Of a stretch of DNA of 64,000 nt, positions 25,848 through 36,822 are shown piece after piece. Position 1 is the stretch's first letter, and the number at the start of each line of letters is the position of its first letter. The position numbers and the translations under genes were made by a program. Origin of the DNA: Planctomycetota bacterium (lineage in GTDB: Bacteria; Planctomycetota; JAJSAM01; JAJVHW01); contig CBDFJG010000003.1 of NCBI GenBank assembly GCA_965248445.1, positions 224,001 through 288,000 on the forward strand. The letters run 5' to 3'. Under the pieces are notes generated by a model, which had not been told where the DNA came from, did not search any database, and saw only the letters and a list, made by a program, of their open reading frames with translations.

Positions 25848-26404
25848 AACCACGCGCCCGGGTACATGCGCCCACGGGCGGTGTACGCGACCCATTGGCA
25901 GCCGTGCAGGTGACCGGCGAGCGTGAGCCGAACGCCGCTCTTGCGGGCCTCCGGCCAGACCTGCGGGTAGTGCGCGCAGAGCACGTGTGCGTCACGCCGC
26001 ACTCGCCCCTCGATCACGACGCCGTCCAGGTCGAGCGGTGCGTCGGGAAGCCAGCGCCCACCGGCGCCGACCACCGCATCGCGAACCGCGCGAACCCCGG
26101 CCAGCGCGTCGTGATTGCCCGGCACCGCCGCGACGGTCACGGTCCTCGCGAGACCGGCGATGGCCTCGCCGAGCGCGCGCACGCCACGCGGGCCGTCCGC
26201 GAGGTCGCCGCCGAGCAGCAGCGCGTCTGGTTCCGTCTCGGCAACCGCTTCGAGAAGTAGCGCGGGGACGTTGCGCGTCCACGCCCGGCCCAGGTGCAGG
26301 TCACTTGCGTAGAGCAGTCGAGGGCCCGATCCGCCGAGACCGATGTCGACGCTCTCCTGACGCACGTGCAGGTGCAGCGAGCGTCCGACCACCAAACGAC
26401 TCAC
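25721..26404 (-). CDS. Metallophosphoesterase (YkuE-like)
   Basis: ASDLHLG, LGGDLAD, VPGNHD, LAGHLHG, VSRGAG..RWNCPREV. Confidence 0.88.
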   Translation of the reverse strand: MSRLVVGRSLHLHVRQESVDIGLGGSGPRLLYASDLHLGRAWTRNVPALLLEAVAETEPDALLLGGDLADGPRGVRALGEAIAGLARTVTVAAVPGNHDALAGVRAVRDAVVGAGGRWLPDAPLDLDGVVIEGRVRRDAHVLCAHYPQVWPEARKSGVRLTLAGHLHGCQWVAYTARGRMYPGAWFYRWNGLRFEEGDSTLVVSRGAGDTLPVRWNCPREVVLAETC

Positions 26405-26982
26405 GCCACCACGCTGTTTCGAGACTTGGGGAGCGACTTGGCGCTCTCTGTCGCCGTGCGTGCGTGCTCGTACCAGAGCAACACCGCGAGGCAACCGAGG
26501 CACCATGAGCGCACGATCCCGCGGCCGCCGAGACCGCCGAAGAGCATCACCGTGGCCAGGACAGAGACGGTGCCCATCGCTGCGATCACACCGCCCGCAC
26601 GCGCGACGAGCGCGCGGGACGCAGCGAAGGGGCTCTCCGCGCCGTCGAGGGCCGCGGGGAACGCGAACACGAGCGACGCTTCGACGGCATAGAACGCCGG
26701 AAGAGCCGCCAACAGCCACCACGCGGATCCCGTTACCCACGCGAGTGCCGCGGGGACGAGCGCGGCGACCGTGCACGCGCCGTACTTCAGCACGCCGAGT
26801 TGAGTGAACGACCGGTGTCCCTCCGGCGCCCGGCCGCGCAGCACGCCGAGGGCGGCGCGCATCCACTCCGCTCCGCCGCGGAACCCGGCGCGAGCGGCGC
26901 TTCGCGCACGTCCCGCCAAGTCGTGCGCCGGATCGTCATAGACGAGTGCGGCATCGCGCATCAGGTGGATCGCTTCACGCAC
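26401..26982 (-). CDS. Hypothetical membrane protein
   Basis: TM helices, FYAVEASLVFAFP; overlaps both neighbours (operon). Confidence 0.65.
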   Translation of the reverse strand: MREAIHLMRDAALVYDDPAHDLAGRARSAARAGFRGGAEWMRAALGVLRGRAPEGHRSFTQLGVLKYGACTVAALVPAALAWVTGSAWWLLAALPAFYAVEASLVFAFPAALDGAESPFAASRALVARAGGVIAAMGTVSVLATVMLFGGLGGRGIVRSWCLGCLAVLLWYEHARTATESAKSLPKSRNSVVA

Positions 26983-27499
26983 CGCCGTGTTCCACGAAAC
27001 ACCACTGCGCCCACGCGAGCCATGCGATGCCCATGCCGATGGTGAGCACGCGGTGCAGCATCGACTCGAGGCGGCTGCAGCGGCGATGGAACGTGAACTC
27101 GTCGTAGCAGATGAGAACCAACGTCGCACCCGCGACCACGAGCACCGGAATCAGTAGGTGTCGCGGCTCAGGCGAGAGCGTTGCGAGCGACATGAGGACG
27201 AACAGCGGCAGTCCGCCGCCGAACAGTGCGAGGAACTCCGCGCGGCGCTCCGCGTGCCCGACCCGCCGGCCGCCGCGCCGGTGGTATTGCCAGTCGGCAA
27301 CGCCGGCCGCCGTCGCGAGCGTTCCGGCGACGGCGACGATGCCGAGCTGCCACGGCAGGGGCGCATCTCCCGTCAGCCACGGGAACCGCATGTCGCCGCG
27401 CAGCACGAGCAGGCCGACCGCGAACAGCACACCGGGAAGGACCGCGGCGCAGACGTTCGCAACCTGGAGAGGCTCGAACCTGCGAACGGCGACGGACAT
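26975..27499 (-). CDS. Hypothetical membrane protein with His-rich motifs
   Basis: DWQYHR, YDEFTFHRRC, ESMLHR; TAGTTT -10 box 7 nt before ATG 27499. Confidence 0.7.
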   Translation of the reverse strand: MSVAVRRFEPLQVANVCAAVLPGVLFAVGLLVLRGDMRFPWLTGDAPLPWQLGIVAVAGTLATAAGVADWQYHRRGGRRVGHAERRAEFLALFGGGLPLFVLMSLATLSPEPRHLLIPVLVVAGATLVLICYDEFTFHRRCSRLESMLHRVLTIGMGIAWLAWAQWCFVEHGGA

Positions 27500-27562
27500 C
27501 CGCGACAAACTACGACGCGACGCCGACGCCGCCGGACGAGCCAGCTTGCTGGGCAGCGGGGG

Positions 27563-28090
27563 TCAGAGACCGAAGTGGAAGAGGTGGTAGATCCGACCTC
27601 GCTTCAAACCGCCACCGAAGTGACGTGTGGCGGAGTGGAACACCCCTCCCGGGAACAGCAGCGCACGGTTGTAGAGATTGCCGATCCGGCCCACCTCTTC
27701 CCAGCGTCGCTTGCGCGGGCTGTCCTCCTCGAGTTCTTCCAGTATATCGGCGAGAGGTGTGCGCAGTCGTTTGGCATCGCGCCACGTGGGCTTGGCGAGG
27801 AGACCCGTGCGCCGGTGGCGCCAGAACGACGTGCCGGCGTCCGCGGGCGCACCGGGCGTGAGGTAGACGAGCATCGAGATCCACGCGGTCGGCTCGTCAT
27901 AGTGCACGCCGACGGCCTCTGCCTTGTGGCCCTTGGCGAGCGCACTGAAGAACACGCCCTGGCCGAAGTCCTTATGTGCGTTGTCGGTGTGCCACTCGCG
28001 AATCCGCTGGCCGAGCGCCTTCTCGATCCGCCCGCGAATGCCTCGGGGGAAGTACGGCGCCGTCCGCCAGCCGGTCACCTCTTCGTACAC
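27563..28090 (-). CDS. DUF6445-like / 2OG-Fe(II) oxygenase-like protein, probably 5'-truncated
   Basis: VHYD, LVYLTP..GTSFWRH, NLYNRALLFPGGVFHSA..GRIYHLFHF (HxD..H triad). Confidence 0.65.
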   Translation of the reverse strand: MYEEVTGWRTAPYFPRGIRGRIEKALGQRIREWHTDNAHKDFGQGVFFSALAKGHKAEAVGVHYDEPTAWISMLVYLTPGAPADAGTSFWRHRRTGLLAKPTWRDAKRLRTPLADILEELEEDSPRKRRWEEVGRIGNLYNRALLFPGGVFHSATRHFGGGLKRGRIYHLFHFGL

Positions 28091-28185
28091 CGGGGTCGGC
28101 CTGAGGCATCTCGCTTCCGACGGTCGGCCACCGGCACTCGGCTGAGCTTGCGGCCACCGCCGCCGGCAGGAGTCCCGCGCCGCCC

Positions 28186-28315
28186 CTACTTGATGTGAGA
28201 CTCCGTCCGGTTCCGTTCAGGACCGGTACAGGCTCCGACGTTCCGCAAGCGCATCGCCAACGCGGGACAACGAAGCGCCTTCGCGAACTCCGCGTATGCA
28301 CAGGATGGGCACAAG
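28186..28315. repeat. 130-bp cassette left-end repeat, copy 1 (15-bp att-like core plus terminal GCACA(A/G)G direct repeats)
   Basis: Ungapped alignment to 31511-31640, 114/130 identical (manual count). Confidence 0.92.
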
Positions 28316-28316
28316 C

Positions 28317-28832
28317 TCAGGAACGCGCGTTGGCGCTCGGAGCAACGGAAGGCCGCTTGCGGCGCAGCAGGAACCAGGCCATGAAGACTCCGAACGCGGC
28401 AGCGACGAAGGCCAGCGGGATCGTTTTCGGTTCGTCCTCCACGAACATCATCGCCGTGAACCAGCAGGCGCCCATCCACAACGCAACCAAGACGAAGACG
28501 GCGGCTCGGCGACCTGCAGAGGCTTGTCCAACCACTCGTTCGAGCCGCTCTCGCGCGTTCTTGCCCTCTTCGTAGTAGCGCCAATCCCGGCAGATGCTCC
28601 AGTGCGCCCACGCGCCCAGTGCGACGGCGGAGACCGGCACGAGCCACCACATCTCGCTCCAGTATTCGGTCGTCGGGTCGCGCGAGATCATCGCAGCCCA
28701 AGCGAGGGGTGCGATTGCCGCCAGCGCGTAGCCGATGATGATCAGGCGTGTGAGGCCGAGACGCCGAAGGACCAGCCACACTCCTGGGGAAGTGATTCCG
28801 AACGGGCGGCGCTGTGGGGCGAGGAGACTCAC
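28317..28832 (-). CDS. Hypothetical membrane protein (cassette cargo)
   Basis: Four TM helices; stop 2 nt from the left-end repeat; TAGAAT 7 nt before GTG. Confidence 0.7.
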   Translation of the reverse strand: MSLLAPQRRPFGITSPGVWLVLRRLGLTRLIIIGYALAAIAPLAWAAMISRDPTTEYWSEMWWLVPVSAVALGAWAHWSICRDWRYYEEGKNARERLERVVGQASAGRRAAVFVLVALWMGACWFTAMMFVEDEPKTIPLAFVAAAFGVFMAWFLLRRKRPSVAPSANARS

Positions 28833-28892
28833 GGTACTGATTCTAACCGCTCGATCGGTTCCGCGGTTCCGGGGTGACCGCGCGCCACACCG

Positions 28893-28912
28893 GGCGCGCC
28901 ATACCGAGACCG
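28893..28912. repeat. Cassette right-end motif GGCGCGCCATACCGAGACCG
   Basis: Identical 20-mer at 32214-32233. Confidence 0.85.
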
Positions 28913-28914
28913 TC

Positions 28915-29655
28915 TCAGCGGCGGCCGACGAACACGAACTCCTTGCCTGGCCGATCGGGTGCGTCGCGAACGTCGGCGATCTCGAAGCCGGCGCTGACCA
29001 ACGAGCGTTCGATGGCGGCTCGGGACCGGAATCGCAACGTCGACTCCGACGTCAGCCTGCGGCCGTCGCTCTCGAAGACGTAGACCGCATCGAACGTGAC
29101 GAACTCGCCGCGCACTGCGGTGACGTCGACCCACGTGTCGACGCGTTCCCCGTCCGGCATCGTCACCGTGCCGCGCGACGCCGCCTCCGTCCTCTCCTCC
29201 CAGTCACGTCGCGCCGGGTTGCGGGTCTCGAACACGAGATGACCTCCGGGGTGAATGCAGCGCGCCAACGCACCGAGTGTCTCCGACCAATCGTCGTCGG
29301 TCAGGAAGACCTGGGCCACGTTGCCGGTCATGGTCGCGAGGTCGACGCGGACCGGTGTCTCGAGCCGGGCAAGCGCAGTGGCGTCACCGTGCACCCAGCG
29401 CACGCGGTCGGCCGCCGGCTTCACCGCGGCCAGAGCGAGCGATGCGGCGGCCGGATCGAGCCCGGTCACCTCGATGCCGCGAATCGCCAATCGGCACACC
29501 AGCTCGCCGGTGCCGCAGCCGATGTCGAGCACGGATCGCGCGGCGAGCTCGTCGACGATCGACTCGTAGTGACTGAGGTCGTCGCGATGGCCTTCGGACG
29601 GGTCGTAGACGGCGGCCAGTCGCGGGTCGGAGAATGCCGTGTCGGCGGTCAGCAC
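28915..29655 (-). CDS. Class I SAM-dependent methyltransferase (cassette cargo)
   Basis: SVLDIGCGTG, VTGLDPAAASL, DLATMTGNVAQVFL, PGGHLVFETRNP. Confidence 0.92.
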   Translation of the reverse strand: MLTADTAFSDPRLAAVYDPSEGHRDDLSHYESIVDELAARSVLDIGCGTGELVCRLAIRGIEVTGLDPAAASLALAAVKPAADRVRWVHGDATALARLETPVRVDLATMTGNVAQVFLTDDDWSETLGALARCIHPGGHLVFETRNPARRDWEERTEAASRGTVTMPDGERVDTWVDVTAVRGEFVTFDAVYVFESDGRRLTSESTLRFRSRAAIERSLVSAGFEIADVRDAPDRPGKEFVFVGRR

Positions 29656-29706
29656 GCCCGCCACTCTACGGACGATACCGAGTGCGCTGAATTCCATCAC
29701 CGTGCG

Positions 29707-29741
29707 TGGACATACCGTGACCGGTGTCCGTTGCCACACGG
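29707..29741. repeat. Cassette right-end motif TGGACATACCGWGACCGGTGTCCGTTGCCRCACGG
   Basis: 33/35 identical to 31454-31488. Confidence 0.88.
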
Positions 29742-29783
29742 TGGAACACGGGACCCGCTGTCCGTTCAGTCATCTGCCGCAAG

Positions 29784-29844
29784 TGACGCCCGAGCGCGGA
29801 GCCGGCCGAGTCGCTTGCGACCGGCCGGCTCCGCGCCGGGCGCA
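29784..29844. repeat. Long imperfect palindrome with three extrahelical bases
   Basis: Arms pair perfectly once A29786, A29793 and A29809 are looped out; TT at the apex (29815-16). Confidence 0.85.
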
Positions 29845-30078
29845 TCCCTGCCGAGATCATGCGCGACCCGCCTCCTCCGCGGCAACGGCTCCATCGAGCG
29901 GTCGCACGCTGACCGATATCCAGTTGCGAGTAGCGAGCCAGTTGTCTGTGCGCGGAGACGCAAGCCAGTGGCGGATGCTCGGAAGGCCCTGCTCTAACAG
30001 GGGGGTAGGGATAGTGGAGAGGCAGTGAGGACGGCGAACGGGCGGGGCAACGTGACCGCGCGGTAGTGTGCTCGTGTC

Positions 30079-31422
30079 GTGACAACCGGCCGGAAGATCG
30101 TCGTTGCCTTGGTCGTGTTCGCCATCGCGGTGGCGACGGTGCTCGTCTTCGTCGTGGTGCACGTGCTCGGTTCCGTGCACGACGGAGAGCGCGGGCGGTT
30201 CGACGCGATCCTCTCCGACCTGGCCGCGCGTGGAGAGCCCGTGTTTCCCGGCGACCTGGCTGGACCGGCGGTGGAGCCGGGTGACGACGGTGCACCGCTG
30301 ATCCGCGAGGCGTGGGCTTGGCTCGACGAACACGCGCCGCCAGCCGAGGAGCGGCCGGGGACGTGGGAACTGGACCTTGACGCGTGGGGAGCGCTCTCGG
30401 ATGAGGAGCGCGCGCGGCACGCGGGGTTCGTGGGGTGGTTGCAGCCCTATCTGGACCTGGTTCGCGCGGGGACGGAACGGCCGGTGTTGCGTCTGTTCGA
30501 TCGACCGAAGGAGTTCGGTTTCGGAGAGCGGACCACGGAGACCGTCGAAGGCGTACAGTCGACGCATCGACTGCTCAGCGCGAGCGTCGTCGTGGCGGAC
30601 GACTCGGACTCCAGACTGCGTGCCATGCGAGCGCTCGGGCTGCTGGGCGCGCGACTGGAGCGGCACGAGAGTGCGGTGATCACCCTGATTGCGGTGGTCT
30701 TACAGCATGGGCCGCTCGAGCGCCTTCGCGAGCACGTCGAGCGCGATCTTGTCGATGCTGCATCCGCGGTCGAGGTTCTCGCGCCGGTGTTGCGCTCCGA
30801 CGTGCGGAGCCAGGTGCTCGCCGGGGTCCGGGCCAGCCGGGTGTCCGCCATCGGCATGCTGCGTACCACCGTGGGCGACGCGCCGGACACCTGGGGCCAC
30901 GACGGGCCAACGGTGGATGGCTGGACGGCCGCGCTGTCGCGCGATGCGGTGGCCGACTTCGCACTGGATGTGCAGGCGATTCTCGACGCGAACCCCGACA
31001 CATGGTCCGACCTGACTCGTCGGCTCAGCGGACTGTCCGACAGGGCGCGTCCGCGCTGGCGCACGCGCCCTTGGGAATTGAATCCCGGCCAGACGACTGC
31101 CGGCGCTTGCGCGGTTCTCCTCCCCAAGCTGGCGACGCAGGGCGCGCGCGCGTCGGCGCTGCAGTCGCTCGCCCGGCTCTCGCTCGCCGCGGTCGCGGCC
31201 TTCGACCGCACGGGCGTGTGGCCAGCGTCGCTCGACGAGATCGGCGTGCCGGACGGTGTACGGATCGATCCCTTCACCGATCGTCCGTTCGTGTTCGAGC
31301 GGCTTCCCGACGGCGTGCGCATCTCTTCCGCCGTGCCGGTGGATGCCGACGTATGGGGCTCGAAAGCCGTGGAGCAGAACTCACCCGCGGACGACGGTCT
31401 CGTCTGGACACTGCGGCGGTGA
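30079..31422 (+). CDS. Hypothetical membrane-anchored protein with pseudopilin/GspG-like C-terminus (cassette cargo, inverted)
   Basis: N-terminal TM; C-terminal TGVWPASLDEI..IDPFTDRPFVFER..ISS..DD pattern. Confidence 0.7.
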   Translation: MTTGRKIVVALVVFAIAVATVLVFVVVHVLGSVHDGERGRFDAILSDLAARGEPVFPGDLAGPAVEPGDDGAPLIREAWAWLDEHAPPAEERPGTWELDLDAWGALSDEERARHAGFVGWLQPYLDLVRAGTERPVLRLFDRPKEFGFGERTTETVEGVQSTHRLLSASVVVADDSDSRLRAMRALGLLGARLERHESAVITLIAVVLQHGPLERLREHVERDLVDAASAVEVLAPVLRSDVRSQVLAGVRASRVSAIGMLRTTVGDAPDTWGHDGPTVDGWTAALSRDAVADFALDVQAILDANPDTWSDLTRRLSGLSDRARPRWRTRPWELNPGQTTAGACAVLLPKLATQGARASALQSLARLSLAAVAAFDRTGVWPASLDEIGVPDGVRIDPFTDRPFVFERLPDGVRISSAVPVDADVWGSKAVEQNSPADDGLVWTLRR

Positions 31423-31453
31423 GACGGCGTGACCGCGAGAGGTGTCGGACCCA

Positions 31454-31488
31454 TGGACATACCGAGACCGGTGTCCGTTGCCGCACGG
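31454..31488. repeat. Cassette right-end motif, 53 bp before the att-like core at 31511
   Basis: Matches 29707-29741; contains CATACCGAGACCG. Confidence 0.88.
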
Positions 31489-31510
31489 AATAGTCGTCCG
31501 GCAACGCGGG

Positions 31511-31640
31511 CTACTTGATGTGGGACTCCGTCCCGTTCCGTGCTGGACCGGTACAGGCTCCGAGATTCCGCAAGCGCATCACCAACGCGGTACCACGAAG
31601 CGCCTCGGGGAACTCCGCGTAGGCACAAGTTAGGCACAAG
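31511..31640. repeat. 130-bp cassette left-end repeat, copy 2
   Basis: CTACTTGATGTGGGA core ... AGGCACAAGT-T-AGGCACAAGT direct repeat. Confidence 0.92.
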
Positions 31641-31650
31641 TTGGCCGGTG

Positions 31651-32184
31651 CTAGGCGGCGGCGCGGTGGCGCGCGACGAGCCAGCGCCATGCTGCACGAA
31701 GCGTTCGGAGCAGCCACGTCGTTCCCTGAAGGCTCCACCAGTAGAGCCCCAGGGGAACGAGCAGGAGCGCGGTCGCTGCGAGAGCCAGCCGAACGCCGTC
31801 TTCGACTGTGCCGAGAAGCGCACCAGCGACCACGCCGACGAGGACGGAGACGGCGAACGACATGACGACTGCGATCGGGATCTCGGTGATGAGCGGCCAG
31901 TTGAGGCGTTGCCGCGCACCGTGCGTCAGCAGGGTGGACGGGAACAGTACGAGGATGACCGAGGCGGCACTGCCTACGAGTGCGAGGAGCAGCATGAACG
32001 GGAGGGCGAGCGCACCGCCTATCGGCTCACCCATGAGCACGGCCCAGGCCAGCATGCCGAAGTAGGCGAGCATGGTGAGGACGATCGTGGTGCCGACCAC
32101 CGTGGCGGCCGCCAGGGCGTGCCCGAGGGCGGTCTGCGTGTGGGTCACGACACGTTCGGGCCGGCGGCTGTCGTCGTCAGGCAC
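31651..32184 (-). CDS. Hypothetical membrane protein (cassette cargo)
   Basis: Four TM helices, PLGLYWW; TACGCT 6 nt before GTG 32184 (alternative ATG 32223). Confidence 0.7.
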   Translation of the reverse strand: MPDDDSRRPERVVTHTQTALGHALAAATVVGTTIVLTMLAYFGMLAWAVLMGEPIGGALALPFMLLLALVGSAASVILVLFPSTLLTHGARQRLNWPLITEIPIAVVMSFAVSVLVGVVAGALLGTVEDGVRLALAATALLLVPLGLYWWSLQGTTWLLRTLRAAWRWLVARHRAAA

Positions 32185-32213
32185 GGCTCTAGCGTACCGC
32201 GCGGGCCGGTGGA

Positions 32214-32337
32214 GGCGCGCCATACCGAGACCGGACTAGGATTCGTCACGGAGTCGTCGCGCGGAACGGGCGTGGCTACTTGATATGGGAATGCCCATTG
32301 AGCCTGGAGCGGCGACCTGGGACACTATCTGGGACAC
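32214..32337. other. Junction: right-end motif (32214-32233), att-like core (32276-32290) and arm-type repeats CTGGGACAC x2 (32317-25, 32329-37)
   Basis: Directly visible repeats that abut the integrase ATG. Confidence 0.8.
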
Positions 32338-33450
32338 ATGCCCAACCGACGCTCCTTCGGCTCCGTGTACCGGCGCAAGCGCCCTGACGGCTCCGAGATG
32401 GACGGCTACTACATCCGCTGGAGCGACGCGGGCGGACGGCGGCGCAAGCGGTTCGGCGGGCTGACCAAGGACGCCGCCGAGACGACGCTCCTCGAGATCC
32501 GGCGCGCCGTGCTGCGGGAGCGCCTCCTCGGAGAGCCCCAGGTCGAGGACATCTCGCTCAGCGCGTGGCTCGACCGCGTGCCGAAGATCATGCGAGCGCG
32601 CAAGCAGGCGCCGCGCACGATCGCGAACCGGCGCGCAGCGATGAAACGCCTGCGGTCCAAGTTCGGTCGCCGGCCAGCAGTGAAGATCACCCAAGCCGAC
32701 ATCCAAGCGCACATCGACGCGCTCTCGCTCGCCGGCATGAAGAACAGCACGCTGCGCACCGAGGTCGGGACGATCAGCGTCGTATTCGCGATGGCGGTTG
32801 CGGCCCGCGTCGCGCTCGTCAACCCGGCTCGCGGCGTGAAGGTCGGGCGCGTTGTCCACAAGGCCGTCTCTTGGCTGCGCGCCGACGAGCTGATGCGCGT
32901 GCTCGTGGCGATGCCTCGGAGCATCCGGTCGTGCGTCGTGCTGCAGGCCGAGCTTGGTCTCCGACCCGGAGAGGCGCGCGCGCTGGCGTGGGAGGACCTC
33001 GACGACAGGTTCGAGGTGCTCACGGTGCGTCGCACAGACGGCAGCGACACCACCAAGTCCGGCCGGGAGCGCCGCATCCCGTCGAGCCAATTAGCCATCG
33101 ACACGCTCCGCCACCTGTGGGGGCGCAGGCACGTACGCTCGCTCGCTGGGCTGACCCCGGTCTTCCCCGACATCACGGGGTCGAATTACAACCGGGAGTT
33201 CCGAGCCGCGGCTGACCGGATCGGTAGGACGACGCTCGTTCCGCACGATCTCCGGCACAACTGGATCGCGCATCTGGTTCGCACGCCCGGAGTGGACCTC
33301 GAGAGCGCCCGACGCATGGCGGGGCACGAGTCCCTCACGACGACGCAGAAGTACCTGCGCGCCATCCCGGACGACGAGGCGTTCGACGCCATGCATGCGC
33401 GCGACACGATGCAGAGTGGCGGTCACGACTCGCTCCTCGCGACCCCGTAG
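32338..33450 (+). CDS. Phage-type tyrosine integrase
   Basis: N-terminal arm-binding-like GSVYRR..YYIRW; catalytic LGLRPGE (R), TKSGRERRIP (K), HDLRH, GHES..TTQKY. Confidence 0.95.
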   Translation: MPNRRSFGSVYRRKRPDGSEMDGYYIRWSDAGGRRRKRFGGLTKDAAETTLLEIRRAVLRERLLGEPQVEDISLSAWLDRVPKIMRARKQAPRTIANRRAAMKRLRSKFGRRPAVKITQADIQAHIDALSLAGMKNSTLRTEVGTISVVFAMAVAARVALVNPARGVKVGRVVHKAVSWLRADELMRVLVAMPRSIRSCVVLQAELGLRPGEARALAWEDLDDRFEVLTVRRTDGSDTTKSGRERRIPSSQLAIDTLRHLWGRRHVRSLAGLTPVFPDITGSNYNREFRAAADRIGRTTLVPHDLRHNWIAHLVRTPGVDLESARRMAGHESLTTTQKYLRAIPDDEAFDAMHARDTMQSGGHDSLLATP

Positions 33451-33599
33451 CCGAAGTACCTGCGGAACTCGACCTGGTCGATGACGTAGCTACCCGACCG
33501 CTTGACCATCGGGAGACCGCCGCCCTTCTTGCGCACTCGCTTCCGTACCGAGTCCTCATCGATCCCGAGGATCTCGGCGACGTGCGCGGTTGTGAGCAC
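33423..33599 (-). CDS. Excisionase-like HTH protein
   Basis: VLTTAHVAEILGIDEDSVRKRV..LPMVKRSGSYVID; convergent with and overlapping int. Confidence 0.75.
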   Translation of the reverse strand: MLTTAHVAEILGIDEDSVRKRVRKKGGGLPMVKRSGSYVIDQVEFRRYFGYGVARSES

Positions 33600-33610
33600 A
33601 AGCGGGTACA

Positions 33611-34700
33611 GGGGCTCCCCCCTTCGCTCAGGTTGAGCGTCCGATCGGGTGACTAACATCGCACTTACAAGGAGGTGCGATGACCGGTGCCATGATCCCC
33701 TTTGCGCGCGACGACTCGCTGCCGGGCACACTCGCCGAGTTTGTCGTGAGGTTCTCCGACGAAGATCGGTGTGCAGCCCTGCTGCGCCGGTGGAAGTACG
33801 GCGAGGGCGGCTTCCGCTGTCCAGCGTGCGGCGGCGAGGAGGCGTGGTTCCTGCCGTCACGCCGGCTCGACGAGTGTTGTGCCTGCCACAAGCAGGTTTC
33901 GCTCACCGCCGGCACCGTCATGCACGGGTCTCGCAAGCCGCTACGGCTGTGGTTCCTGGCCATGTATCTGTTCGTGTCGAGCAAGCGAGGCATCTCCGCA
34001 CTCGAGCTGCAGCGCGAGCTTGGACTGGCCAAGTACCAGACCGCTTGGACATGGCTGCACAAGTTGCGAAACGCCATCGCGATGCGATCCACCGCGCCGC
34101 TGCGCGGACACCTCGAGATCGACGAGACCTGGGAAGGCGGACTGCGACATGGCCGGCCGGGGCGTCCCAAGGTCGGCGACCGCAGCGCGCTGGTCATGGG
34201 AGCCGTCGAGATCTCACCGCGTCACGCCCTCATCGGTCGCATCCGTCTCGAATCCATCGCCGATGGTTCGGCTGACACGGTCAAGGCGTTCCTCGAGCAG
34301 CACGTCGCCGCACGCTCAGTGCTGTTCACCGACGACTGGCGTAGCTATCGAAAGCCGGCTGACGACTTGGAGCACGACCATCGACCGACCAACGTGTCGA
34401 AGTCCGACGACGAGGCACACGTTGTGCTACCTGCGATCCACCGCGTCTTCTCGCTGCTCCATCGCGTGCTCTTGGGCACGTTCCAGGGCGGCGTGCGACG
34501 CAAGTACCTCCCCAGCTACCTGGCGGAGTTCGAGTTCCGGTTCAACCGACGCACATCGAAGCGACGTGGACTGCTGTTCCAACGACTACTCGCCTGCGCC
34601 GTGCGGCGATGCCCTCCCTTCCACTGGGAGATCGTTGGGCGAACCGATGCGCGCACGCCACTCGCCGCCGCAGCCTGACCTGAGTGAAGAGGGGATCCCC
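33611..34700 (+). mobile_element. IS1595-family insertion sequence (ISSod11-like, DDH)
   Basis: TIRs GGGGCTCCCCCCTTCGCTCAGGT (33611-33) and GGGGATCCCCTCTTCACTCAGGT (rc of 34678-34700), 20/23; no clean 8-bp TSD. Confidence 0.88.
33692..34678 (+). CDS. IS1595-family transposase
   Basis: Zn ribbon CPAC..CCAC, ISALELQRELG, EIDET, LFTDDWRSY, LPAIHRVFS, YLAEFEFRFNRR; AAGGAGG upstream. Confidence 0.93.
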   Translation: MIPFARDDSLPGTLAEFVVRFSDEDRCAALLRRWKYGEGGFRCPACGGEEAWFLPSRRLDECCACHKQVSLTAGTVMHGSRKPLRLWFLAMYLFVSSKRGISALELQRELGLAKYQTAWTWLHKLRNAIAMRSTAPLRGHLEIDETWEGGLRHGRPGRPKVGDRSALVMGAVEISPRHALIGRIRLESIADGSADTVKAFLEQHVAARSVLFTDDWRSYRKPADDLEHDHRPTNVSKSDDEAHVVLPAIHRVFSLLHRVLLGTFQGGVRRKYLPSYLAEFEFRFNRRTSKRRGLLFQRLLACAVRRCPPFHWEIVGRTDARTPLAAAA

Positions 34701-34708
34701 TGTGCGGG

Positions 34709-35077
34709 CTAGTGGATCTCGACGCCGGTCAGGTCCATCAGGGCGTCGAACTTGATCGCGAACGCGCGCACGACGCTCTCGCCGTCGAAGTACCGCTCGC
34801 TGCGAAGCACGTTGCCCTCGCGGGAGTGCTCCTCGAGGTTGCCGTCCCGGTTGAGCGTGAAGCGCACGATCACCCGGGCGTTGTCCTCGATCAGGACCTC
34901 GAGGTTGTCCGTCGCGAAGAAGACCCCGCCCGCGCCGATGTTCTCGACGGCGCCGGTCAGTTCCTTCTCGGCACAGGCCAGCGACGCTTCCAGCCGCGTC
35001 TCGGTGCGCGGGTGGATACGACGCTCGCGGCCGGTCGCCTGCGTCTCCGTGTGCTCTTCTGGAGCCTGGTTTGCCAT
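34709..35077 (-). CDS. PilZ domain protein
   Basis: ERRIHPR (RxxxR) and NIGAGG (N/DxSxxG-like) c-di-GMP motifs. Confidence 0.85.
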   Translation of the reverse strand: MANQAPEEHTETQATGRERRIHPRTETRLEASLACAEKELTGAVENIGAGGVFFATDNLEVLIEDNARVIVRFTLNRDGNLEEHSREGNVLRSERYFDGESVVRAFAIKFDALMDLTGVEIH

Positions 35078-35347
35078 CGTCGTCCTCGCTTGCTGCGCCG
35101 TCGTTGCCAGTCCGCTTCGGGCGGAACCCGGTGCGGGTCGGGTGCCGTCCTAGGAGCGGCGCCCTCGAACTCATCGGTACAAGAGGGCATCGGGATGTAG
35201 CCCCCGGCAAGACGACCTGCGAGGCTCACGCCGGGCTCGATCGGGGCGCCGATCTGAGTTGGGGACCGCATCCCGGGCACCGAGCCTGGAAACCACTGAC
35301 GCCCGGACCCCTCGGGAGCCGAGGATCCGTACAGGAGGCGAGAGAAC

Positions 35348-35845
35348 GTGAAGCCTGGAGACGAGAAGCCTGGAGACGCAGTCTGCGCAGCCCCAGATCC
35401 GCTCTGCGCACGCGTCTGGGAGTTCGCACCGCAAGTCGTCGAGGGCGGACTGCCCGCCGACGAGGCGGGGGCCCTCCGGACGCACGCATCGGCGTGCGGC
35501 TCCTGCGCGAGCGTCCTGGCGCGGCAGACGCGGCTCTCGAGCATCCTGCGCTCCCTTCCGGCCGCCCCGTCGGTCGAACTGGTGGCGCCGTCGCTGCCTC
35601 GCGGACGTGTGCTGCGAGTAGCTGGGGCTGCGGCCGCGGCGGCCGCCGCCGTCGTGATCTCCGTGACGCTTCTGATGGTCGAGGATCGCGACCTGGAGGC
35701 GGCGTTCGTGCCCGTGCGTGTGCTGCACGTGCAAGATCTCGCGGAGCGCGCTCCGCTGCCGGACGACGACATCCTCTCGCTCACGTCCGGTCTCGAGGCC
35801 GTCGCACTGCGCCGCCCGGTAGGCTTCGCGTCCGAGGGACGATGA
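35348..35845 (+). CDS. Zinc-finger (zf-HC2) anti-sigma factor
   Basis: ALRTHASACGSC (HxxxCxxC) followed by a TM helix; AGGAGG upstream. Confidence 0.75.
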   Translation: MKPGDEKPGDAVCAAPDPLCARVWEFAPQVVEGGLPADEAGALRTHASACGSCASVLARQTRLSSILRSLPAAPSVELVAPSLPRGRVLRVAGAAAAAAAAVVISVTLLMVEDRDLEAAFVPVRVLHVQDLAERAPLPDDDILSLTSGLEAVALRRPVGFASEGR

Positions 35846-36822
35846 TCCGCAGACGCGGACGACACGTCGCCACCACAACAGTTCTGCCTCTGGCAGGACT
35901 GTTCTTCGTTGGGTTGTTGGGGGTTGCAGGACTGACTGGCTGCCGCGATGACGTTCCGGACGATCCCGCTGACGACATGGCCGCCCTTCCGGCGCCGGAC
36001 CCGAGCGCCGCGGAACTGATCGGCAAGATCCGCGACGCCGAGACGAAGCTCGCCTTCGCCGGCTGGAAGACCGCCCACCACGGGCCGCGGGAGAGTTCGC
36101 GCACATCGCGGGTTCACGTGCAGCACGCCCCCGGCGGCCTAACGCTCCTCACCTGGGAGGGTGACGGCGAGCGGCACCAACGATGGAACTTCCGGCAGCG
36201 CCACCGCTGGATCGAGGACCCGGACCTGCTCCTCTCGAACTACACGGTCGAACGCGCTCCTGAGCCGGGCCCGCAGATCGCCTGGCGTGACACGATCACG
36301 ATCCGCGTGCGCGGGCGCGCACCGCATCGCCCGAGTCTCGACATCGACGTCGATGCCGAGACGTGGCTGCCGCTGGCGGAGACGCAGCGCAATCACGTGG
36401 GCGAGGTCTCGTTCGCATGGGCGTACGAGTCAGTGGAGTTCGATCCGGAGCCGCCGGCCAATGCTCCAGCGCCGCCTGAGACGATCGAGACGCCGGACGA
36501 CCAGGATTGGGGCGGCTGCTCGTTCGATGCCCTCGTGGCGTCGAACGTCCCGGCCGGGTTCCGCCGGGTCGCCTGCCGCCTCCTGGACTGCGGCTCCCAG
36601 CGGGAGTTCTGGTCCGATGGGCTAGCCGCCTTCTCGGTCCGGCAACGGCCTGCCAAGGACGACGACACGCTCGCCGTGGGCGCTCTCGAGCGCCGCACCG
36701 GCACGGGCCGCGCGCACGTCCGGGGCCACGTCGGAGGCATGATCGTCGAGGTGGCCGGCTCCCTGCGGGTCGAGGACCTCGAGGACGTCGTCCGCGGCCT
36801 CGCCTCCCGTCCTACGGACTGA
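35842..36822 (+). CDS. MucB/RseB-like lipoprotein
   Basis: Lipobox LTGC; LLLSNYTV, IAWRDT, DVDAETWLPL, WSDGLAAFSV; ATGA overlap with the anti-sigma gene. Confidence 0.75.
   Translation: MIRRRGRHVATTTVLPLAGLFFVGLLGVAGLTGCRDDVPDDPADDMAALPAPDPSAAELIGKIRDAETKLAFAGWKTAHHGPRESSRTSRVHVQHAPGGLTLLTWEGDGERHQRWNFRQRHRWIEDPDLLLSNYTVERAPEPGPQIAWRDTITIRVRGRAPHRPSLDIDVDAETWLPLAETQRNHVGEVSFAWAYESVEFDPEPPANAPAPPETIETPDDQDWGGCSFDALVASNVPAGFRRVACRLLDCGSQREFWSDGLAAFSVRQRPAKDDDTLAVGALERRTGTGRAHVRGHVGGMIVEVAGSLRVEDLEDVVRGLASRPTD

Follow-up and report, generated by a model that had tools for sequence, protein, structure and literature searches.

Repeats beside a tyrosine integrase in a Planctomycetota genome: probable remnants of small integrative elements stacked at the 3' end of rho

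Features of the locus

The window, a stretch of 64,000 nucleotides, belongs to a 5.40-Mb Planctomycetota genome (G000, 92% complete) and contains an array of short repeats and single genes next to a tyrosine integrase (Table 1). An earlier note had described this array as a gene-capture platform of miniature cassettes. Relatives of the same family (G002, G004, G005, and G006) and eight genomes of other families were used for comparison.

Table 1. Positions of the features of the array within the window
Feature	Position	Strand	Remarks
Predicted att core, displaced copy of rho 3' end, outermost rho-distal junction	28186..28200	-	minus strand reads S-H-I-K-stop; G006 rho ends CACTTCCACATCAAGTAG
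Predicted 130-bp long att arm, Rep_trans element family	28186..28315	+	GGCACAA arm site +122 from core; 70-73% to three G005 copies
Slot cargo A, membrane protein	28317..28832	-	59% over 70 aa to G005 slot gene
Truncated REP, 5' tag only	28900..28912	+	abuts cargo B stop
Cargo B, class I SAM methyltransferase	28915..29655	-	Methyltransf_25 E 5.2e-15; likely start GTG 29655, longest ORF from 29739
REP copy	29711..29743	+
58-bp near-perfect hairpin	29787..29844		93% to G005, -37.1 kcal/mol; in G005 directly after rep stop
Putative nick-site (oriT/dso-like) remnant CTAACAGGGGGGT, left arm weakened	29987..30006	+	2 genome matches
Cargo C, 447-aa protein, no Pfam family	30079..31422	+	96% copy, lacking REP and att ends, at G000:C3:29560-30908
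REP copy	31458..31490	+	36 nt past cargo C stop
Predicted second att core and long arm	31511..31640	+	GGCACAA at +111 and +122
Slot cargo D, membrane protein	31651..32184	-	likely start GTG 32184, longest ORF from 32223
REP copy	32221..32253	+
Predicted third att core and short arm, prophage-type element	32276..32337	+	TGGGACAC twice at 32318-32337
Prophage-type tyrosine integrase with catalytic motifs, not IntI	32338..33450	+	Pfam Phage_integrase E 1.2e-18
HTH_17 excisionase-like gene, convergent, 5' part truncated by the IS	33423..33609	-	HTH_17 E 1.2e-6; paralog at G000:C2
IS1595-family element, no matching target duplication; marks break to unrelated host genes	33610..34701	+

Cargo genes A, B, and D each have their own -10-like box. 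Cargo D gave no Pfam, PHROG or NCBIfam match, and cargo A and C gave no PHROG match. Cargo B occupies the place that rep holds in the intact elements of relatives. The match between cargo C and its chromosomal copy begins at codon ~7 and extends to the stop. The 58-bp hairpin and the nick site are kept in the G005 order. The CT'AA nick site in its G/C-rich hairpin is present at 29994-30006 and eroded, with a hairpin energy of -4.2 vs -9.5 to -13.7 kcal/mol in four other copies. Still present in the window are the arm, a single arm-adjacent gene in each unit, the nick-site remnant, and the 58-bp hairpin, in unit remnants of 0.8-3.3 kb. Neither rep nor a cognate integrase lies within 28186-32275, and the second arm is missing at all three cores.

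The window is found in four sequencing runs (at most one sample and one study), in all of them as contigs. All core-arm-gene junctions are supported, because independent contigs from three runs cover 26500-30147 (inside a single 17.7-kb contig) and 31346-33638 (inside a single 2.3-kb contig) with 0 differences. The circle junction of 31511-32275 that the earlier note had named was absent from the run contigs of the one sample, as was a core-to-core joint at any core; three joints listed in these contigs have sides of 20-21 letters and are located away from the cores. The missing joint does not prove that excision never happens, since contigs drop rare variants.

Cores, arms and the rho target

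The 15-bp core CTACTTGATRTGRGA is present exactly at 28186, 31511, and 32276 and nowhere else in the genome, where up to two mismatches yield 11 matches including these three; the Markov expectation is 0.0001-0.002 per word. Two of the cores open the 130-bp repeat, whose copies agree at 114/130 positions and are the only ones in the genome, with cargo stops at 28317 and 31651 following 2 and 11 nt past it. The coordinates given in the earlier note proved correct. Read as its reverse complement, the core is a rho 3' end, namely that of relative G006, whose rho ends CACATCAAGTAG. Furthermore, the arm motif GGCACAA occurs at +110/111 and/or +121/122 in all eight ends from four genomes (at both positions in six), its spacing being conserved. 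A short arm (-42/-30) is found at 2 of 12 junctions, namely those of the two intact elements, and at none of the three window cores. Comparison with the relatives supports lambda-type att chemistry with cores and arms, as the earlier note had proposed. The stacking of elements in tandem at a single attB is likewise supported by the core copies in the arrays, which number three in the window, three in G005, two in G006, and one in G004.

The rho 3' end is occupied in four of the five same-family genomes with this rho orthologue (G000, G004, G005, and G006, not G002) and in none of the eight other-family genomes examined. In G000, rho lies on another contig, at C4:1441650, and ends HFHIR-stop; over the 12 positions before the crossover, this end and the 32276 core agree at only 9. 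The TGGGACAC arm pair has two genome occurrences, one in the window and one ~95-125 bp past the rho stop (G000:C4:1441533). This unique shared pair would link the array to the rho contig in an IS-scrambled assembly. Rho-downstream synteny is of no help in placing the array, as none was found between the relatives' genes downstream of rho and the left flank of the window.

An RNA-gene target was rejected, since the array has no tRNA nearby and 26000-36000 gave no Rfam match at E<=0.1. A coding remnant was also rejected as the nature of the 130-bp repeat, given its many non-synonymous differences (judged by eye). Scanning genome_contigs for the arm pattern gave seven stretches, of which three are overlapping loci on one Planctomycetota contig and not independent support, the other four being chance matches without core or arms; all six stretches from metagenome_contigs were chance matches. 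Rho as an integration site was not found in the literature searched, though TIGER/Islander target tables or supplements may list it.

The parent element family in relatives

The long arms are assigned to a family of 5-6 kb integrative elements composed of a tyrosine integrase, a CTAA-hairpin nick site, and a Rep_trans protein. Both G004 and G005 carry an intact member at rho, and decayed members form stacks in G005 and G006. The G004 element (5146 bp) has the order rho-int-nick site-rep-arm-core, which is repeated in the 5.7-kb intact element of G005, and beyond the latter lie decayed units with rep 5' stubs. As the units of G005 and G006 end in rep stubs, they are deletion products. The rep product belongs to PF02486 (Rep_trans; E 6.4e-15 in G005), with 49% identity between G004 and G005, and the two element integrases share 52.6%. 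The CT'AA nick-site hairpin is intact in G004, G005, and G006. A PF02486 protein is absent from the window, and the best G000 matches to the G005 integrase reach 36-37%, besides a 42% N-terminal fragment; no intact cognate enzyme was found in this 92% complete genome. The slot beside the rho-distal arm holds five unrelated gene types in seven filled of eight ends, one being empty. The expectation that the ends would flank different single genes was thus realised in relatives, while further 130-bp copies in G000 were not found. Additionally, a second integrase-less stack was noticed in G000 at C4:535-549k. Rep_trans elements in Planctomycetota were not found in the literature searched, where a single listed paper names the phylum once. 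Sequence comparison establishes core identity, family anatomy, REP identity, and the missing arms; the intact elements of G004 and G005 are presumably mobile.

The integrase in the window, 62 bp before whose start lies the last core, belongs elsewhere. It is 62.7% identical to the integrase of a prophage with portal and tape-measure genes, whereas its identity to the two element integrases is 36.6% and 31.5%. Its different arm motif and prophage type indicate that it is not the cognate enzyme of the Rep_trans units, contrary to its earlier casting as the enzyme of the array. Relatives of it were absent from viral_contigs. The window integrase and the rho-side stump probably once formed one element, although the term prophage is weakly supported on the rho side because one of eight tested proteins there has a PHROG match (HNH). 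For the C2 prophage no partner att was found, and comparison of this prophage and the rho-side stump with the genome located no missing middle part (tblastx, the matches listed being mostly noise).

REP repeats and the Y1 transposase

The motif CATACCGWGACCG at 28900, 29711, 31458, and 32221 had been taken as the right end of the cassettes, since the last two copies lie 53 and 55 bp before the next cores. Comparison identifies it instead as the genome-wide REP of a Y1 transposase. It has 16 exact genome copies, 12 of them outside the window; an inverted 34-bp REP pair surrounds the only Y1_Tnp of the genome at C4:497083-498096, and copies are dispersed in intergenic positions. Seven of nine homologous loci tested possess their own inverted pair, three of them tagged ATACCGA. 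Elsewhere in the genome, REP copies lie 0-11 nt past the stops of ordinary genes, as is usual for REPs, and the homologous arrays of G005 and G006 do not contain the REP tag. One copy does accompany each of the four cargo genes at the positions reported, but in the three minus-strand genes it lies at the 5' side and not after the gene.

The window REPs are nevertheless dense, with 4 of the 16 co-oriented within 3.4 kb against 0.01 expected if uniform. Moreover, both window units have the slot gene followed by GGCGCGCCATACCGAGACCG (20/20 at 28893 and 32214) and share the succession of a REP, 22-24 nt, and a core, although the similarity of the 26 nt adjoining the cores is only marginal (shuffle p 0.02-0.05).

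Origin of the array

Most likely, the repeats are what is left of the ends of small mobile elements that inserted successively at the rho end, together with a short repeat unrelated to them and a prophage stump, and not a working gene-capture platform. In our judgement the locus is probably a fossil tandem-accretion array at a hotspot for integration formed by the final codons of rho, and it subsequently decayed. Small rolling-circle integrative elements, with integrase, excisionase, CTAA-hairpin nick site, Rep_trans protein, and a one-gene slot by the rho-distal arm, would enter at the rho end via core-and-arm recombination. Each integration would restore rho and leave a displaced core copy. 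Deletions would then strip each element of its rho-proximal arm, integrase, and rep, only core, long arm, and slot gene being kept, and the next would enter rho-proximal to the previous remnant. The last arrival would be the prophage-type element, with its integrase end at 32276-33609. REPs of the resident Y1 transposase would accumulate between genes and may be deletion endpoints; this role and the order of events are what we infer. Finally, an IS-linked rearrangement or an IS mis-join would separate the array from rho. The units cannot be called complete cassettes, because they lack the second arm; they appear as remnants of larger autonomous elements. The outcome largely agrees with the deletion scars of ordinary islands that the earlier note itself had named as a refutation, except that the parent islands are small (5-6 kb). 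Against this accretion stands that rho is not adjacent in the assembly and that its end agrees only partly with the 32276 core, and the shared end pattern of both window units, beyond chance position, counts against simple independent decay. The swappable slot (five gene types, eight ends) and four REPs in 3.4 kb are left unaccounted for.

More active readings can be drawn from these residual features. Units without int and rep might stay mobile as one-gene cassettes, moved in trans by the integrase of the Rep_trans family, and form a living capture platform. Such a platform is unlikely. It would suit the common end pattern, the variety of slot genes, the -10-like boxes of cargo A, B, and D, and the similar stacks in G005, G006, and C4:535-549k; however, the second arm is missing at every window core, the 130-bp end has two genome copies only, a 92% complete genome yields no intact cognate integrase, and the G005 and G006 units are deletion products. 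A bolder version, to which we give equally little credence, would make the slot a dedicated single-gene capture site, in which the Y1 transposase swaps ORF-precise genes via co-oriented REPs on a single-stranded DNA intermediate and strips int and rep, while the family integrase moves units in trans without IntI or attC.

It is also improbable that the Y1 transposase (RAYT) built the cargo train, with co-oriented REPs as cut-and-join points on rolling-circle single-stranded DNA at which int and rep were deleted and genes such as B and C brought in. The REPs are located exactly where rep and int are missing, four are co-oriented in 3.4 kb, cargo B lies between two of them (one of which breaks off at the cargo B stop), the likeness of cargo C to its chromosomal copy extends almost from end to end, and TnpA-REP cleaves and recombines single-stranded REP in vitro, as described in part of PMC8266576. 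However, the G005 and G006 arrays decayed alike without the REP tag, REPs past ordinary stops are usual, and the cargo C paralog has no REP. Least credible of all is that the array is partly an assembly artefact, its gene order produced by mis-joins across the duplicated cargo C or IS1595. IS flanks are scrambled across the whole G000 assembly, with no matching 8-bp target duplication at 38 of 40 IS66 copies and 5 of 10 IS1595 copies genome-wide, and the independent contigs break within cargo C and at IS1595. Still, the contigs of three runs, with 0 differences, support every core-arm-gene junction, cargo C is flanked on both sides by element sequence in the G005 order, and an artefact could account for the separation from rho, not for the repeats.

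As a fossil array, the locus has modest significance. What it contributes is rho as a hotspot for integration and a small Rep_trans/CTAA-type element family in an uncultured Planctomycetota lineage, together with predicted integrase-att pairs from G004 and G005. It also advises caution in scans, as REPs and displaced att ends can mimic an integron. If the slot or the REP clustering did reflect active capture, RAYT transposases, whose function is still debated, would gain a concrete gene-shuffling role.

Comparison with known systems

Accretion of the ICESt1/ICESt3/CIME type has reportedly been treated by Pavlovic (2004) and Bellanger (2011). Accretion and decay are themselves known; the rho target and the Rep_trans/CTAA family in this lineage were not found in the literature searched. 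The likeness to integrons lies in an array of small single genes mostly pointing away from a tyrosine recombinase. In contrast, the window has neither IntI nor an attC-like site, as the earlier note had held: the TIGR02249 score is 32.7 bits vs a cut-off of 265, which nothing in the genome exceeds, and the attC pattern (RYYYAAC...GTTRRRY) had 0 regex matches on either strand of 27901-32400. Its predicted sites are double-stranded core-and-arm sites, its cargo has its own -10-like boxes, and its integrase is not cognate.

With REP/REPIN/RAYT systems, as presented in parts of PMC8266576 and in NF047646, the locus shares short tagged imperfect hairpins, intergenic positions, an inverted pair flanking a Y1 transposase, and inverted doublets. 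It differs in the tag (ATACCGAG vs GTAG; the tag here is CATACCGAG and not the GTAG tetranucleotide), in having 16-25 copies only, and in a Y1 transposase score of 58.1 bits, below the 80-bit cut-off of NF047646. A lanthipeptide-TnpA-REP preprint, in the portion available, associated the REP-transposase with gene arrays, and its authors withdrew the causal claim (10.1101/2020.03.09.984088).

The larger window unit keeps an oriT-like site without a relaxase, like the iOriT islands in the excerpts of bioRxiv 10.64898/2026.01.13.699239; those mostly keep an integrase and nearly all exceed 4 kb, whereas the window lacks the integrase and one arm and its nick hairpin is eroded. The parent family resembles the MOBT/Rep_trans IMEs of Firmicutes and the ICESt3/Tn916/ICEBs1 nick site in its PF02486 protein, the CT'AA in the loop of a G/C-rich hairpin (the nick-site definition in sections of PMC9371924), a tyrosine integrase, a size of 5-6 kb, and no mating-pore genes seen (compared with sections of PMC5704250 and PMC9371924). 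The intact form is present only in relatives, the window having lost rep, and with no helper or coupling protein identified, conjugative mobilisation is a candidate alongside plasmid-like or satellite replication. The sections of PMC5704250 seen also describe how IMEs, prophages, and decayed elements line up in tandem at the 3' ends of genes. CIMEs keep both att sites, whereas the window remnants have the target-distal arm only; the target here is rho and the host a Planctomycetota lineage. The likeness to ICESt1/ICESt3/CIME arrays is that tyrosine-integrase elements are stacked at a conserved gene 3' end, with decayed members beside unrelated elements such as prophages and with integration and transfer genes lost (PMC5704250, same sections), a loss that is also seen in the window.

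Probable integration at the 3' end of rho

In the 5.40-Mb source genome (G000), the 15-bp att core is present in three exact copies, all of them in the window, and the 130-bp repeat, composed of the core and a rho-distal long arm with a GGCACAA arm site, in exactly two; both are far above chance. Among 40 relatives searched at the DNA level, three copies of the repeat were found on one contig (G005:C97), where a fourth core forms the final codons of the rho gene. Moreover, rho in G006 ends in CACTTCCACATCAAGTAG, which is the window core read on the opposite strand, and on this sequence match the window core is the end of rho. The G000 rho orthologue scores 468.7 bits against NF006886 (cut-off 315). 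Among kin genomes, which are non-independent and incomplete, element DNA lies at the rho 3' end in four of the five same-family genomes with this orthologue (G000, G004, G005 and G006, not G002), and in eight genomes from two further families, one with only 1.9 kb available, no integrase, rep or nick-site matches were found there. Literature searches, covering mainly openly accessible article texts, returned nothing relevant on rho as integration target or on Rep_trans-type elements in the phylum.

The parent element family

In G004, rho is followed by the short arm, the integrase gene, the CTAACAGGGGGGT hairpin and rep, and then by the long arm and a core copy (5146 bp in total), and G005 keeps this order over 5.7 kb, with an additional HTH gene and cargo and a 58-bp hairpin immediately 3' of the rep stop. 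The family rep belongs to PF02486; according to PMC9371924, MOBT relaxases and Rep_trans initiators nick at a CT'AA placed in the loop of a G/C-rich hairpin. All eight distal ends examined have the arm motif +110/111 and/or +121/122 from the core, and two of 12 junctions, namely those of the two intact elements only, have the short arm at -42/-30. Beyond its intact element, G005 carries decayed units in which a core and long arm are joined by a single gene and a rep 5' stub. Additionally, related elements with the same rep occupy other sites in G004, G005, G006 and G016. In relatives, further members of the family (L136, L137, L138, L139) lie at different targets and have direct repeats of 62, 22 and 52 bp, the first of which resembles a tRNA 3' end by eye. 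Inspection by eye at G006:C47 (L026:3555-3660) shows almost nothing between a rep 5' stub and the right half of a nick site, a hint that the nick is the endpoint of some deletions.

The window units

The larger window unit follows the G005 order, with long arm, slot gene and the 58-bp hairpin (93%), followed by an eroded nick site; its slot gene is related to one in G005, and rep was not found in it. Since the short arm is missing at -42/-30 of all three window cores, the units are, judging by their arms, one-armed remnants behaving like decayed tandem islands. A search of G000 for an intact integrase cognate to the GGCACAA arms found none. TANNNT boxes stand 6-7 nt before the GTG starts of cargo A, B and D, suggesting leaderless transcription of these genes; the slot genes of G005 and G006 show, by eye, similar boxes. 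Independent contigs (four runs, one sample) support 26500-30147 and 31346-33638, with 0 differences in three runs, and break inside cargo C and at the IS.

Features of the window and of related loci in G000
Feature	Coordinates	Remark
15-bp core	28186; 31511; 32276	
130-bp repeat	28186; 31511	
REP (second motif)	28900; 29711; 31458; 32221	
Cargo A	28317..28832	slot gene
Cargo B	28915..29655	
Cargo C	30079..31422	
Cargo D	31651..32184	slot gene
TANNNT boxes	28832-28845; 29655-29668; 32184-32196	cargo A; B; D
Adjacent integrase	32338..33450	
IS1595	33610..34701	
Y1 transposase locus	C4:497026-498173 (L003)	perfect inverted 34-bp REPs at 497026 and 498173, resembling IS terminal repeats
REP inverted doublet	C4:862034-862152	118 bp
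Family remnant	C4:630613-632551 (L030)	intact nick hairpin near broken rep
Family remnant	C1:213575-214063	integrase 5' half with short arms, IS-cut
Second att stack	C4:535540-548633 (L028, L029)	integrase-less; five GGCACACA-type arm pairs
Target gene of second stack	C4:548567-549154 (L029:2568-3155)	minus strand
Prophage remnant	C2:786000-809600 (L001, L002)	about 22 kb; portal, head-tail adaptor, tape measure, integrase paralog; IS66-cut

The second motif

The earlier note had taken the second motif for the right end of its cassettes. The motif is not local: 16 exact copies are spread across G000, four inside the window, and it is a lineage-specific REP. Inverted copies flank a 337-aa gene, the sole Y1_Tnp match of G000, which matches NF047646 (REP-associated tyrosine transposase) with E 8.6e-16 and 58.1 bits, below the 80-bit cut-off. 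Other copies in G000 lie 0-11 nt beyond stop codons of ordinary genes. Of 16 relatives from the order, 14 have homologues of the transposase, and seven of nine homologous loci tested show the same one-pair layout, with inverted pairs of their own sequence (ATACCGA start in three). Counts of the REP 14-mer are 15 in G000, zero across 15 relatives from the order, and one or two in each of nine among 300 phylum genomes. The tag's one match in the G004 element is unrelated.

The adjacent integrase and a second stack

The adjacent integrase shares 62.7% identity with an integrase at C2:808-809k, versus 36.6% and 31.5% with the element integrases of G005 and G004. Portal (E 1.2e-60) and tape-measure (E 9.8e-32) genes lie in the region that the C2 integrase terminates; the partner att of this prophage remnant was looked for and not found. 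The arm pair TGGGACAC-N-TGGGACAC is present twice in G000, at 32318 and roughly 95-125 bp beyond the rho stop on C4, and we infer that these sites are the opposite ends of a single prophage-type element integrated at rho. The rho side on C4 holds small ORFs, including one HNH gene, over 5 kb up to IS66. IS1595, which has non-matching flanks, cuts an excisionase-like gene. Furthermore, an own 8-bp target duplication is absent in 38 of 40 IS66 and five of 10 IS1595 copies of G000, and flanks often match another copy; therefore G000 is either heavily rearranged by massive IS-mediated shuffling or has contigs joined across IS repeats, which bears on any synteny claim for it.

In the second att stack, unrelated cargo separates displaced copies of the 3' end of an AhpD-like gene; rep, nick site and REP were not found in it. 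Its target gene is probably a selenoprotein, because it has one in-frame TGA (motif CFY-stop-Y) and both halves match TIGR01926 and NF041238.

Origin of the array

The stack quite probably arose by integration at the rho 3' end: an element would integrate site-specifically, the resident would decay, and the next would enter. We infer this order of events, as well as mobility and, in G000, the link to rho. Mobilisation of the units in trans as cassettes is unlikely, and REP-driven assembly on single-stranded intermediates slightly more so. Both could draw on the slot between long arm and rep start, which is empty in G004 and holds five unrelated gene types in the other seven ends, the stop codon in each case being no further than about 25 nt from the arm. 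Both could likewise draw on the REPs (four in 3.4 kb versus 0.01 expected if uniform), the identical 20-nt REP flank after both window slot genes, the shared ending of REP, 22-24 nt and core (final 26 nt only marginally alike), and cargo C, whose 96% match to a chromosomal copy coincides nearly exactly with its ORF.

However, the second arms are missing, the 130-bp end has none of the further genomic copies that had been predicted, and the homologous G005 and G006 arrays decayed with no REP tag found in them, which count against both routes. The coordinates of the integron-like array all proved correct on rechecking; its lack of IntI and attC stands, as the adjacent integrase is not IntI and no attC-like site was found. 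CIMEs retain two att sites, which sets the window units apart from them. The three-step route, and tandems including prophages, are described in PMC5704250; tandem accretion and decay is a known process, of which the window array is a new instance.
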